Assembly (NCBI GenBank): GCA_016432525.1 | Contig: CP066693.1 | Coordinates: 785,639 to 849,638 of the forward strand | From: Candidatus Woesebacteria bacterium | Lineage (GTDB): Bacteria > Patescibacteriota > Microgenomatia > UBA8517 | Length of the DNA: 64,000 nucleotides | Reading direction: 5' to 3' | Shown here: positions 49,196 through 61,002 of the stretch, one piece after another | Layout of the letters: each line of letters starts with the position of its first letter | How positions within the stretch are numbered: position 1 is the stretch's first letter | Translations under genes and position numbers: made by a program | The notes under the pieces: generated by a model | The model's input: the letters and a program-made list of their open reading frames with translations, nothing else | The model's database searches: none | What the model was told of the DNA's origin: nothing

Positions 49196-49258
49196 AACAC
49201 TAGTATAGACCAAGTGAGCCTCAGGCTCAATTCCAGCCTCAAAATTATCCCATAATAC

Positions 49259-49287
49259 TTGACTTTTGACTTGAAAAATGCTATAAT
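49259..49287 (+). promoter_or_regulatory. consensus-like sigma70 promoter TTGACT-17-TATAAT
   Basis: TTGACT at 49259-49264 and TATAAT at 49282-49287 with a 17-nt spacer. Predicted TSS about 49294. Confidence 0.6.
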
Positions 49288-49344
49288 TCTTTTACATTAA
49301 ATTAGCCTTAATTCAAGGCTAGCACATTTAAGCAAATTCTCTTT

Positions 49345-49401
49345 AATTACCAACCTCTTTAGGCATGACCCTCGTGCTTAACGAGGTTGGTAATTTTTTT
49401 A
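49345..49401 (+). terminator. leader hairpin plus U-tract (attenuator or small-RNA terminator) between the promoter and the 49421 ORF
   Basis: Perfect 12-bp stem ATTACCAACCTC / GAGGTTGGTAAT with a 25-nt loop, followed by TTTTTTT. AAGGAG RBS and ATG lie 20 nt downstream. Confidence 0.55.
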
Positions 49402-49420
49402 TCTCACAAGGAGATTAAAG

Positions 49421-52994: not shown

Positions 52995-53253
52995 ATTATT
53001 AGAAGTATATTATCACATTTGAGGAAAAATTATTCTCTTTTAAAAACCTGCCCAAATCTACTCCCGGGTTCACCTATGCCTTAGGTAAGAACGGTTTCGA
53101 ATAAGCACACACAGCGCTTATTCCTCTAGTCACAGACTTTCGCCTGCACAAGTCAAGGCTATTCAGTTTTTCGCATAAGATAGCTAGTAAATGGAAATGA
53201 CCATGCTACTCATACATTGGAAAAACCTTTATTAAGAGTTACCGATAAAAAGC

Positions 53254-53282
53254 AGTATACCAAATTACTTATAGGATGTCAA
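53254..53282 (-). promoter_or_regulatory. near-consensus sigma70 promoter TTGACA-17-TATACT immediately after the HIT stop codon
   Basis: Minus-strand TTGACA at 53282-53277 and TATACT at 53259-53254, spacer 17. Would drive a roughly 210-nt non-coding leader or small RNA before yqeY. Confidence 0.5.
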
Positions 53283-53283
53283 A

Positions 53284-58255: not shown

Positions 58256-58284
58256 GATTAGTTTTTTCCTTCCTTAATCCTCCA

Positions 58285-58339
58285 TTTATCAGCCGTGCCC
58301 CGTGCGACGGGGAAGTAATCAGGAAGGTTACTGATAAAT
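58285..58339 (-). promoter_or_regulatory. structured 5' leader of rpsB (nested GC-rich hairpins)
   Basis: Outer inverted repeat ATTTATCAG / CTGATAAAT enclosing CCCCGT-gcg-ACGGGG. Lies between the folD stop and the rpsB RBS (AAGGAAGG). Confidence 0.45.
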
Positions 58340-58370
58340 GTGTGTCAAACGAAAACTAGTATACAACTTG

Positions 58371-59177
58371 TTAATCTTTGGAGCAAGCTTTAACCAAATT
58401 TTCCATCAAAGCTACTATTGTAACTGGCCCTACTCCTCCAGGGACCGGTGTTATAAACGAAGCCTTTTTTGATACTCGATCGAAATCAAATTCAGGTTTT
58501 GGGGCCCCACAATCAATCGCAATTACTCCCTCTTTAACCATTTCTGCTTTAATAAGTCCGAGAACTCCAGTTGCACTTACAACCAAATCAGCTTCATGAA
58601 TTTTTGCGTATAAATCACGAGTTCCTTGGTCACATCCAGTAATCTTAAACCCTAATTTTTTAAGCTCTATACAAACACCTTTTCCAACTGTTCCATTCGC
58701 TCCAATAACAGTTGCTTTCTTTCCGACATAGGCAAGAGGTTTTATCGCAAAACTAACGATAGAAGAAACAGCCAAAGAAGTTGCACCCGAAAACAAAGAC
58801 TTGTCTCTAAGTCCATCAATATCTTTTTGTTTTTTAATTGAATTTAAAATTTCATCTTTATGTTTAGAAAGACTTTCCGGTAAAGGAAGTTGCACCATAA
58901 TTCCATGAACACTTTTATTTACATTTAATTTCTTAATAAGTTTAATAATTTTTGTGTGAGGCGTATCTTTTTCAAATTCAACAATATCCATTTCAATACC
59001 AACTTTCTCTGCTGATTTCTTTTTGAGATTTAAATAAATTTTTGAAGCTTTATCATTTCCTACCAGAATAGAAGTAATTCTTGGCTTAATTTTTCTCTTT
59101 TTTAAAAATTTTACACTCTCCGCAAGCAGTTCTTCCCGTTCTTTTGCAAACTTTTTTCCGTCAAAAATATAGCTCAC
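58371..59177 (-). CDS. folD: bifunctional methylenetetrahydrofolate dehydrogenase/cyclohydrolase
   Basis: PGGVGPVTIVALMENLV and the NADP-binding GxSxxxG region. 268 aa. Confidence 0.9.
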   Translation of the reverse strand: MSYIFDGKKFAKEREELLAESVKFLKKRKIKPRITSILVGNDKASKIYLNLKKKSAEKVGIEMDIVEFEKDTPHTKIIKLIKKLNVNKSVHGIMVQLPLPESLSKHKDEILNSIKKQKDIDGLRDKSLFSGATSLAVSSIVSFAIKPLAYVGKKATVIGANGTVGKGVCIELKKLGFKITGCDQGTRDLYAKIHEADLVVSATGVLGLIKAEMVKEGVIAIDCGAPKPEFDFDRVSKKASFITPVPGGVGPVTIVALMENLVKACSKD

Positions 59178-59213
59178 ATGCTTATTTTAACACAGATTGA
59201 AGCTAAAGGAAAT

Positions 59214-59258
59214 AAAAAAGCCCTGAAGGTATATTTTTGTTTTGTTACCCTCAGGGCT
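59214..59258 (-). terminator. intrinsic terminator (minus strand) 37 nt upstream of the folD start
   Basis: Minus-strand AGCCCTGAGGG-(18 nt loop)-CCTTCAGGGCT followed by UUUUUU. Confidence 0.6.
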
Positions 59259-59658
59259 GAAGACATTGATGGCGGCAGGAAAGAGTTACAAGTTGGCTGG
59301 CGGCCCACATGCGCTTCTCAACCACACTTGGTTCTTTCCTGCTTGCTGGCTTCACATCCAATAGCGATTCGCGACTCGCTATACCAGCTTGAATTCATGG
59401 TGTACGTCAAAGCTAGATTACTTCGCAAGAAGTAAATGCTTCCGTCAAGCACCGGGCCAGTAGCCGCCGGGCCAATCTAGCTGAAACACGAGAATCTATC
59501 CCGTGGACGGAGGAAACATCCGGGCAAAGCCTCGAGCGAAGCCCAAGTAGCCATACCACAAGCTCGGTTTTTTGTGGACCGCTCGCTTCCGGCGATAACC
59601 TTCACCGGTAAGGGAGCGATCCACAACCGCGAAAAACATCAAAGTGCAAATTTAAAGT
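59214..59658 (-). ncRNA. unclassified GC-rich structured RNA candidate (about 445 nt) between glyA and folD
   Basis: No ORF of 60 aa or more on the minus strand, and only a spurious 85-aa ORF on the plus strand. Bounded by a TTGACA-17-TATTAT promoter and an intrinsic terminator. Nested inverted repeats are present (TGGACCGCTC...GAGCGATCCA, CAGGAAAGA...TCTTTCCTG, TAGCGA...TCGCTA). GC content is far above the flanks. Confidence 0.4.
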
Positions 59659-59664
59659 ATGAGT

Positions 59665-59693
59665 ATAATATCACACCCAATTTATTCTGTCAA
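59665..59693 (-). promoter_or_regulatory. sigma70 promoter TTGACA-17-TGnTATTAT (minus strand)
   Basis: Minus-strand TTGACA at 59693-59688, 17-nt spacer ending in TG (extended -10), and TATTAT at 59670-59665. Confidence 0.55.
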
Positions 59694-59708: not shown

Positions 59709-60929
59709 TTAATCTATTGGAAATTCTTCACAAAGTTTCTTCACTTCCATAGCAATCTTCTCTCTATCTTTCCTCTCTGAAACTTCACTAATCCACTTCG
59801 CAATTTTCTTCATTTCCCCCTCTCCCATTCCTCTTGCAGCTAGAGCAGGAGTTCCAAGCCTTATTCCAGATGGATTAAAAGGTGGGTTAGGATCATTAGG
59901 AATTGCATTATAGTTAACAACAACTCCAGCCTCTTCAAGCCTTTCCGCAAATTCCCTCCCTGAAATATTCTTTCTTCGAAGGTCGATCAAAATCAGATGA
60001 TTATCAGTTCCATTTGTTACTAAATCAAATCCATATTTTGTTAATTCTTCAGAAAGCATTTTCGCATTGTTAACTACTTCCTTTGCATAAGTTTTGTAGT
60101 TTTCGCTCTGCGCAAAGCGAAGAGCGATAGCTATTCCCGCAGTAGTATTATCATGAGGCCCCCCTTGAAGTCCCGGAAAAACAGCCCTGTCAATTTTCTT
60201 CCCCATTTCCAGATCTTTCTCAAGTCCTTTGTTAGTTACCATGATAATTGCACCTCTGGGTCCCCTCAAGATTTTGTGAGTTGTTGTCGTAATTACATGG
60301 GCAAATTTAGATGGATCAGGGTGGATTCCTGCAACAACTAGCCCTGAAATATGAGAGATATCAGCCATTAGATACGCTCCAACAGATTCAGAAATTTCAG
60401 AAAACTTCTCAAAATCAATTTGCCTTGGATACGCAGTTAATCCCGCAATAATTAATTTTGGTTTATGCTTTTTTGCCAGTCTTTCAACTTCCGAAAAATC
60501 AATATACCCATTTTTATCTACTCCATACTGAATACTATTAAAATATTTTCCGGAAAAAGTAATTTTCGGGTGCCCATGTGTTAAATGCCCACCAGCATTT
60601 AAACTCATTCCAAGAATTATGTCGCCTGGATCTAAAAGCGCCATATAAACTGCTGCATTTGCTGGCGATCCAGAATAAGGCTGAACGTTTGCATGAGGAG
60701 TTTTAAAAAGTTTTTTAGCACTTTCGATAGCAATCTCTTCAATTTCATCAATATATTTATTGCCTTGATAATAACGCTTATGGGGATATCCCTCAGAATA
60801 CTTATGCATGAGGACAGATCCTACAGTAGCTCTAACTTCAGGATACGCATAATTTTCAGAAGGAATCATCATCAAAGTTTCTTTCTGTCTTTTAGTTTCT
60901 AAACTAATAAGCCTTTTAATTTCATCCAT
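59709..60929 (-). CDS. glyA: serine hydroxymethyltransferase
   Basis: IPSENYAYPEVRATVGSVLMHKYSEGYP and the PLP-Lys region TTTTHKILRGPRG. Start moved to MDEIKRL (60929) to match the family N-terminus; the track start is 60992. Confidence 0.9.
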   Translation of the reverse strand: MDEIKRLISLETKRQKETLMMIPSENYAYPEVRATVGSVLMHKYSEGYPHKRYYQGNKYIDEIEEIAIESAKKLFKTPHANVQPYSGSPANAAVYMALLDPGDIILGMSLNAGGHLTHGHPKITFSGKYFNSIQYGVDKNGYIDFSEVERLAKKHKPKLIIAGLTAYPRQIDFEKFSEISESVGAYLMADISHISGLVVAGIHPDPSKFAHVITTTTHKILRGPRGAIIMVTNKGLEKDLEMGKKIDRAVFPGLQGGPHDNTTAGIAIALRFAQSENYKTYAKEVVNNAKMLSEELTKYGFDLVTNGTDNHLILIDLRRKNISGREFAERLEEAGVVVNYNAIPNDPNPPFNPSGIRLGTPALAARGMGEGEMKKIAKWISEVSERKDREKIAMEVKKLCEEFPID

Positions 60930-61002
60930 AATTTGGATTCTAAACAAAAAAATGCGGGAAAGCAAAAACGCTAAGCGTCTGATCTCCCGCAAAAACCTAC
61001 CC

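Follow-up and report, generated by a model that had tools for sequence, protein, structure and literature searches.

Complex-folded bacterial non-coding RNAs (ncRNAs) of more than 400 nt are rare, and nearly every class that has been studied is unusual, the functions including catalysis, membrane-associated ribonucleoprotein particles (RNPs) and RNA cages. Bacteria of the Candidate Phyla Radiation (CPR, or Patescibacteria), a large and uncultivated group, have genomes of about 0.9 Mb with very little non-coding DNA. In a 64,000-nt stretch of a genome from this radiation, that of a Candidatus Woesebacteria bacterium (the stretch as a whole is called the window below; mean GC 35.6%), the genes glyA and folD are separated by a GC-rich element of about 480 bp, 59693-59214 on the minus strand. 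We consider it probable that this element represents an independent gene, whose product is a large ncRNA with a complex fold, and that it is restricted to one narrow Woesebacteria lineage. The predicted RNA measures about 445 nt in the window. In the one sister genome that could be compared, represented by a 2,165-nt contig of another assembly (L110) and found via the members of the 90% FolD cluster, its length is about 545 nt.

In general appearance the element is like the large RNAs OLE, GOLLD, ROOL, HEARO and raiA: it is several hundred nt long, multi-domain, high in GC within an AT-rich genome, and forms a discrete intergenic unit with a narrow phylogenetic range. Unlike these, it is known from two genomes only and has no oapA, IscB, tRNA array or prophage as a partner, and neither their covariance models (CMs) nor those of the other large ncRNAs in Rfam 15 gave a match. 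The combination of GC content and intergenic position is the signature of the Breaker-lab pipelines (PMC6429828, PMC11109978).

Two further comparisons concern the genomic position of the element. In other bacteria folD and glyA are controlled by ZTP (pfl) and THF riboswitches. Like those riboswitches, the element immediately precedes folD, has an intrinsic terminator at its 3' end and is part of a one-carbon/thymidylate gene cluster, but it is four to six times larger, matches no CM of theirs, is absent from relatives and has neither an antiterminator nor a conserved expression platform, and folD has a (putative) promoter of its own. In the proteobacterial ssrS-ygfA arrangement, 6S RNA, a rod of about 185 nt with a central bubble, is partly co-transcribed with ygfA. 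The present locus is similar in that a putative stable RNA gene is found immediately upstream of a folate-metabolism gene. A reading as 6S RNA itself was rejected, as the RNA is multi-branched, has a length of 445-545 nt and does not match the 6S CM.

A GC-rich cassette with its own promoter and terminator

The element occupies a 531-bp gap between two genes that were identified with Pfam:

59709-60992, minus strand: glyA
58371-59177, minus strand: folD, with a GTG start

The highest GC peak of the entire window (59295-59594; 54.7% against the mean of 35.6%) falls inside this gap, which, by a crude gene call based on open reading frames (ORFs), is also the longest non-coding gap, two larger apparent gaps having proved to be coding. 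The locus recurs in an NCBI metagenome-assembled genome, a 916-kb contig and a Logan assembly. A preliminary description of this DNA had pointed to a GC-rich region without a credible ORF between glyA and folD. We find the same, with no coding signal at the GC peak, and every sequence feature that was listed there could be retrieved at its position. The signals that delimit the predicted RNA are the following:

59688..59693, minus strand: -35 hexamer TTGACA, identical in the sister genome
59665..59673, minus strand: extended -10 box TGaTATTAT; TGcTAAAAT at equal spacing in the sister genome
59214..59258, minus strand: intrinsic terminator with a 13-bp stem, a 14-nt loop and U6

The promoter proposed in the preliminary description, TTGACA-17-TGnTATTAT at 59693-59665, matches the consensus at 11 of 12 positions and has the additional TG. 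Taken alone, a score of 11 of 12 is reached no more often in the window than in shuffled sequences; when the TG and the 17-nt spacer are included only three sites remain, all of which are intergenic. Comparison with the sister genome showed that 6 of the 17 spacer positions differ, whereas both hexamers keep their consensus positions (TATTAT becomes TAAAAT). The spacer has thus diverged at a neutral-like rate around retained hexamers, which implies that selection and not recent transfer lies behind the similarity of the two loci, and which is the signature of a working promoter. From the promoter spacing, transcription is predicted to start at A59658, about 7 nt past the -10 box. Two further promoters of the type TTGACN-17-TGnTATAAT, both intergenic, indicate that canonical sigma-70 promoters with an extended -10 box are in use in this organism. 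Near-consensus promoters elsewhere in the window are located at 49259-49287 on the plus strand (TTGACT/TATAAT, in the intergenic gap 49214-49420) and at 53282-53254 on the minus strand (TTGACA/TATACT, in the intergenic gap 52995-53283).

The hairpin followed by U6 that had been reported for 59258-59214 was recovered as well. Its arms (59258-59246 and 59231-59219) form 13 bp including one G.U pair, the U6 runs to 59214, and the fold has a free energy of -21.7 kcal/mol (z = -6.5). A terminator scan missed this structure because it limits loops to 8 nt, against 14 nt here. In the sister genome the stem and the U-tract are identical and the loop has 9 nt instead of 14.

Strand and predicted fold

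The minus-strand RNA from about 59658 to about 59214 has a minimum free energy of -178.8 kcal/mol (z = -7.0 against dinucleotide shuffles), and the version in the sister genome folds with z = -7.2. The plus strand folds too (z = -6.2), with each subdomain weaker than on the minus strand. The fold of the minus strand contains 11 G.U pairs and 0 A.C mismatches; for the plus strand these numbers are 5 and 5. Since the transition-type imperfections are all G.U when read on the minus strand and the subdomains are more stable there, we take the RNA to be encoded on that strand. The parts of the predicted fold are, from 5' to 3':

59628..59658, minus strand: AU-rich 5' segment ACUUUAAAUUUGCACUUUGAUGUUUUUCGCG, identical in the window and the sister genome
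59572..59626, minus strand: hairpin H2, about 23 bp and nearly perfect, with the apical loop AGGUUA (z = -7.6)
59559..59560, minus strand: expansion site, with 109 extra nt in the sister genome
59383..59568, minus strand: central multi-branched domain, closed by CCGAGCUUG/CAAGCUGG
59418..59435, minus strand: hairpin UUACUUC-UUGC-GAAGUAA, with a compensatory change in the sister genome, where the loop UUGC is CUGU
59361..59382, minus strand: hairpin H4, AUAGCGA-GUCGCGAA-UCGCUAU, invariant in the sister genome
59344..59360, minus strand: linker UGGAUGUGAAGCCAGCA, unpaired and invariant in the sister genome
59275..59342, minus strand: H5, closed by the 10-bp stem GCAGGAAAGA/UCUUUCCUGC, with a second stem inside it and an apex that varies

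Hairpin H2, which carries the motif UACCGGUGAAGG, is built on a 17-nt inverted repeat with 88% complementarity (59572-59588/59610-59626). It shows zero substitutions between the two genomes, and two of its U.G pairs would be mismatches if read on the plus strand. The central domain contains two small hairpins (59505-59521 and 59487-59505), a 9-bp helix (59474-59482/59411-59419) and three copies of U(U/G)GCCCGG (59520-59528, 59467-59475 and 59451-59459); its part from 59517 to 59559 is 100% identical to the sister genome. One apical loop of this domain, UUUCCUC, is replaced by UGGGUUUC in the sister genome with the stem kept. This loop resembles an anti-Shine-Dalgarno sequence and was dropped as a functional lead since it differs between the genomes. 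In H5 the 10-bp closing stem has its arms at 59275-59284 and 59333-59342, and the apex differs between the genomes by indels and three broken pairs. A 24-nt repeat is also present within the element. The nested inverted repeats of the preliminary description were all found, including ATAGCGA/TCGCTAT at 59361-59382.

The 5' segment can pair in the window with 59263-59271 (helix P1). When the sister genome is included in the folding (RNAalifold), it pairs with the region of H4 and the linker instead, and H4 itself has a rival pairing in the form of a 9-bp helix, UUCGCGGUU/AGUCGCGAA, with the 5' segment. The sequences CUUUAA and CUUUGA give this conserved segment a possible resemblance to boxA. 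Two strong alternative long-range pairings are possible. The first would connect UGUGGGCCGC at the apex of H5 (59300-59309) with GCGGUCCACA in the 3' arm of H2 (59573-59582) by 10 bp, 7 of which are G-C, and its H5 strand has one substitution in the sister genome (59300, C to U). The second would connect GUGAAGCC in the invariant linker (59348-59355) with GGCUUCGC (59536-59543) by 8 bp, and is invariant in the sister genome. These pairings could represent tertiary contacts or alternative folds.

Conservation between the two genomes

In the sister genome, whose FolD is 92% identical to that of the window, the element is found at the same place in a gap of 624 nt. Over 441 aligned positions the two elements are 92.3% identical, whereas the folD genes are 67.6% identical at four-fold sites and 74% at third positions. 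Between RNA positions 51 and 150 (59516-59615) there is a single change among the 100 aligned positions. When the substitutions are mapped on the fold predicted from the window only, they affect 16 of the 292 paired positions (5.5%) and 18 of the 169 unpaired ones (10.7%). The element is under purifying selection on its sequence and on its helices, with variability in the apical loops and at one expansion site.

Three pairs have changed on both sides and all three still pair: 59433/59420 (A-U to C-G), 59338/59279 (G-C to A-U) and 59317/59300 (G-C to A-U). Five one-sided changes keep a wobble pair, and none of six slid-register controls contained a double change. Given that only two sequences are compared and that the shuffle control is weak, the covariation of the predicted helices is only suggestive.

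The 109 nt that are inserted in the sister genome (positions 345-453 of its contig, window site 59560/59559) have a GC content of 55% and contain a second UACC(N)GGUGAAGG hairpin, similar to the apex of H2. Together with the three GCCCGG boxes and the 24-nt repeat, this duplicate suggests that the RNA has grown by the duplication of modules.

Coding potential

A credible ORF is lacking in all frames of the element, under any reassignment of stop codons. The six-frame translations had no match in 5.8 billion protein clusters or 1.84 billion representatives, and the same was found for a 533-aa concatenation of all open frames. As none of the open frames matches a protein, the element is not a decayed gene of a known family.

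The deposited genome contains the annotation of an antisense ORF of 85 aa (59178-59435, plus strand), and this ORF is open in the sister genome as well (88 aa) despite four internal indels, net changes of +3 and -15 restoring the frame. One could consequently propose that a small antisense protein is the functional unit and that the RNA features are secondary, but this is exceedingly improbable. The ORF stays open since the indels add up to multiples of three, and between the indels both the reading frame and the peptide differ in the sister genome; that all three plus-strand frames are open here follows from the GC-richness of the region. For 62 in-frame codons the ratio of nonsynonymous to synonymous differences per site (pN/pS) is 1.3, with a pS of 0.048, compared to a pN/pS of 0.11 and a pS of 0.38 for folD, and the differences are spread without bias over the codon positions (3/4/4). 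These values imply that it is the nucleotide sequence, rather than a protein, that is constrained. The 85-aa sequence has no homologue by word search, by full HMMER search of the 1.84 billion representatives or in Pfam, and no promoter was found on the plus strand.

Comparison with known RNA families

At gathering thresholds Rfam 15 gave 0 matches in the whole window. Queries of 471-641 nt that contain the element, taken from both genomes and searched at E <= 10, produced only terminator-driven noise: the trpB motif at 23.6 bits (gathering score 59) for the window element, and isrL and mycoplasma_FSE for that of the sister genome. Rfam matches were also absent from the loci of the relatives discussed below. 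ARAGORN, which also detects permuted forms, identified no tRNA or transfer-messenger RNA (tmRNA) in the window or in the sister contig. The preliminary description could not match the region to RNase P RNA, tmRNA, signal recognition particle (SRP) RNA or the ZTP and THF riboswitches; this is upheld by Rfam 15 at E <= 10 and by ARAGORN, and the wider Rfam search that it proposed assigned no family, 6S included.

Several specific identities were considered and discarded. The readings as a tRNA with a group I intron, as tmRNA, as SRP RNA and as 6S RNA were rejected on topology. For SRP RNA there is in addition no CM match, and the apex of H2 is a 6-nt AGGUUA loop, not a GNRA loop. Group I and group II introns have no CM match either, and glyA and folD, which flank the element, are both complete.

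The element might still be a housekeeping RNA (RNase P RNA, tmRNA, 6S or SRP RNA) that is highly diverged or rearranged, since stable RNA genes typically share its size, its strong promoter combined with a terminator, and its high GC content against an AT-rich background. We consider this very unlikely. The RNase P RNAs of CPR bacteria are known to escape Rfam thresholds: lowered thresholds were needed in 10 of 35 complete CPR genomes (PMC8172020), although the diverged forms are still recovered by RF00010 when low thresholds are used (PMC8172020). RNase P was therefore tested separately. Neither RF00010 nor RF00011 gave a match, at gathering thresholds in the window or at E <= 10 with the element of either genome.

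In RNase P RNA the conserved region CR-I (GAGGAAAGUCCGGGC) is located 5' of CR-V (ACAGAANCCGGCUUA), and the two form the P4 pseudoknot. Allowing up to 3 mismatches, neither consensus occurs in the element. A CR-I-like string, GGAGGAAACATCCGGGC, had been noted in the preliminary description at 59509-59525 on the plus strand. The string is indeed present, but it lies on the wrong strand, requires an indel and lacks a CR-V partner; it is a chance resemblance. A Smith-Waterman alignment of the element with the M1 RNA of E. coli is at chance level (z = 0.2), and the helix order leaves no sequence between P2' and P1' for the 3' strand of P4. The similarities to type A RNase P RNA, including the diverged CPR forms, are the size, a promoter and terminator of the stable-RNA type, a long hairpin close to the 5' end with an A-rich stretch after it, and peripheral helices that are gained or lost between close relatives. 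A number of short resemblances can be added (the A-rich stretch and CCGAGCU after H2, AGGAAAG in H5, and GUCCAC...GCUU); these were set aside, being at chance level in the motif and alignment searches. With regard to all four housekeeping RNAs, the helix that closes the 5' and 3' ends is itself lost in the sister genome, no T-arm or acceptor-like ends were seen by eye in the sequence, and the multi-branched fold is unlike the rod of 6S RNA.

Relation of the RNA to folD

Only 36 nt separate the end of the terminator from the start codon of folD, and this spacer is 94% identical in the sister genome. The following elements were identified there, the first of which is a putative promoter element:

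59184..59192, minus strand: extended -10 box TGTTAAAAT of folD, ending 6 nt before the GUG; TGCTAAAAT in the sister genome
59175..59177, minus strand: GUG start of folD, at the predicted +1 of the proximal promoter

Given the distance of 6 nt, the predicted +1 coincides with the G of the start codon, and the folD mRNA would be leaderless or near-leaderless. A TATAAT box is found 7-8 nt before the folD ATG in four relatives (L006, L089, L091 and L108), and TAAAAT 8 nt before folD in a fifth (L005). The -10 regions of folD in these contigs, often with TG, are:

L089, 4990-5003
L006, 3984-4003
L108, 2985-3003
L091, 4983-5003
L005, 735-755

A -10 box at 6-8 nt before the folD start in this clade implies leaderless or near-leaderless folD mRNAs. 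The claim in the preliminary description that folD has no promoter of its own is not supported: a conserved extended -10 box is present in both genomes, at the position of the TATAAT box of the relatives.

An alternative explanation is that the RNA serves folD in cis as a 5' leader or attenuator, either of the riboswitch kind or responsive to a protein or tRNA, in which case the RNA promoter would be the promoter of the folD-rpsB operon and the terminator would gate read-through. The proximity of the terminator to folD and the location inside a folate gene cluster agree with this explanation, as does the fact that the folD-proximal promoter has no good -35 hexamer. The 14-nt loop of the terminator suggests partial read-through, the relatives also have a promoter in their short glyA-folD spacer, and in L003 a small hairpin and a U-run precede folD. 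We nevertheless consider it unlikely. No Rfam match was obtained for riboswitch and leader families (ZTP, THF, THF-II, T-box and cobalamin among them), and a size of about 390 nt is far above that of known aptamers. There is no antiterminator: among upstream sequences complementary to a terminator arm, the strongest reaches -13.9 kcal/mol and is located 200 nt away, versus -21.7 kcal/mol for the terminator. The sister genome lacks the 10 nt that border the terminator on its 5' side. The terminator loop and the folD start region are complementary over 10 nt, but as this is lost in that genome it was dropped as a candidate interaction. The TGnTAAAAT box at folD is conserved, and eight relatives regulate the same operon without such a leader. 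The preliminary description offered both a riboswitch-like leader gating folD and an independent RNA gene. The former is not supported by these observations; we favour the latter.

Distribution

Outside the lineage the closest relatives have a FolD that is only 62% identical. Eight of these more distant relatives were compared at the locus, which was located via FolD. The gene order thyX-tmk-tdk-glyA-folD-(small ORFs)-rpsB-tsf-frr is kept in all eight, and between glyA and folD the genes overlap, are 70-78 nt apart, or are separated by a small ORF (with a gap of 377 nt at most) or by a divergent gene. None of the eight loci contains a GC-rich gap or similarity to the element by blastn. The absence from relatives with a conserved gene order indicates a lineage-specific insertion into the operon.

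A second copy of the element was found neither in the 64-kb window nor in the loci of the relatives. A blastn search in distant mode against phages and plasmids gave no matches. An exact-word scan of metagenomes with the 20-mer TGGATGTGAAGCCAGCAAGC gave one chance match (L088), and viral scans with 17-18-mers gave chance matches only, one of them inside a phage ORF of 734 aa. A scan of genome contigs with FolD retrieved only FolD relatives of at most 40% identity from unrelated phyla, which are uninformative on the element.

The restriction to one narrow lineage and the insertion within a conserved operon are also what one would expect of a selfish or decaying non-coding insertion (MITE-like, that is, resembling a miniature inverted-repeat transposable element, or an intron remnant or foreign DNA) without a cellular function, in which promoter and hairpins are incidental. 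The near-perfect inverted repeats, the internal duplications and the rapid structural turnover that is apparent from the 109-nt indel fit such an origin. It is quite improbable, however, in the light of an identity of 92.3% against 67.6% at neutral sites, with the synonymous-like sites of the overlapping ORF equally frozen. The hexamers of the promoter have persisted although the spacer between them diverged, the asymmetry in G.U pairs favours one strand, and compensatory changes are present. In addition, there is neither a terminal inverted repeat nor a target duplication, no second copy occurs in the window or at any locus of the relatives, and the phage, plasmid and viral collections yielded only chance word matches.

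Surrounding genes

In the window the genes tmk, tdk, glyA, folD, rpsB, tsf and frr are found in this order on the minus strand. The element is thus positioned in a thymidylate/folate cluster, as the preliminary description stated; the metabolic link that this suggested consists of position only.

The slot between folD and rpsB is variable in the clade. It is filled with assorted small ORFs that have no Pfam match, at the following positions:

L003, 4811-5473
L006, 4786-5197
L089, 5794-6628
L091, 5785-6099
L107, 3779-4390
L108, 3793-4403, with a YafQ-type toxin pair
L110, 1664-1924, with an orphan ORF of 86 aa

In the window this slot has 115 nt only (58256-58370, minus strand). Upstream of rpsB one finds TTGACA, the helix UUAUCAG...CUGAUAA and, directly before the GGAGG/GGAAGG ribosome-binding region, the GC-rich hairpin CCCCGUCGCACGGGG. 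The spacer had no Rfam match and may be an autoregulatory leader of the S2 type.

ThyX (PF02511) was called as a protein of 545-596 aa in L089 (1-1544), L091 (1105-2895) and L108 (1-226), and of 300-313 aa in L003 and L107. The roughly two-fold length in the first three suggests a tandem or fused ThyX.

Proposed working and significance

On the evidence of its sequence, the element is supported as a non-coding, structured RNA gene on the minus strand with its own promoter and terminator. A number of points weigh against a stand-alone gene of this kind. The two known sequences are close (FolD 92%), their covariation amounts to three pairs, and the shuffle control equals or exceeds it in 58 of 500 shuffles. 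Five predicted pairs, in one inner helix and the apex of H5, are broken in the sister genome, and the 3' strand of P1 is deleted there, so that the closing helix is not conserved and the global architecture is tentative. The large terminator loop may leak, and some folD expression could then originate from the RNA promoter. Finally, no homologue was detected outside the lineage by searches that are weak at a distance, consisting only of exact-word DNA scans and protein-anchored look-ups. Taken together with the evidence for selection, promoter, terminator and fold, we still regard a stand-alone RNA gene as the probable explanation.

Transcription of such a gene would begin about 7 nt past the extended -10 box, and the transcript would fold into the invariant long hairpin H2, the multi-branched central domain and the 3' hairpins H4 and H5. 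The intrinsic terminator would then end the RNA, stop read-through from glyA and insulate folD, whose own extended -10 box would drive the synthesis of an mRNA with no leader or hardly any. Both the transcription of the RNA and its 5' and 3' ends are predictions from these signals. Invariant helices and junctions, combined with variable loops and one expansion site, form the pattern of trans-acting structural RNAs such as protein-binding scaffolds and RNPs; by this analogy we presume that the RNA has a structural or RNP role in trans.

The class is absent from Rfam, we found no description of it, and it is so far limited to two genomes of one Woesebacteria lineage. We tentatively suggest, as a proposal that has somewhat less than an even chance, that the RNA is the first representative of a class, so far undescribed, of large bacterial RNAs with complex folds on the scale of OLE, ROOL and GOLLD. 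This class would be confined to one Woesebacteria lineage, would work in trans, whether as a ribozyme, as the scaffold of an RNP or by self-assembly, and would apparently grow by the duplication of hairpin modules (hairpins of the UACC-GGUGAAGG type, GCCCGG boxes and the domain of 109 nt).

The two variants differ by a whole domain of 109 nt and thereby provide a natural deletion construct for structural work. The locus would also illustrate how a complete RNA cassette can reside within a conserved operon without the downstream gene being silenced, the leaderless-type promoter of that gene having been kept. An RNA of 450-550 nt that is under strong purifying selection in a small CPR genome is unlikely to be dispensable, and it would be among the few lineage-specific RNA genes known in this radiation.

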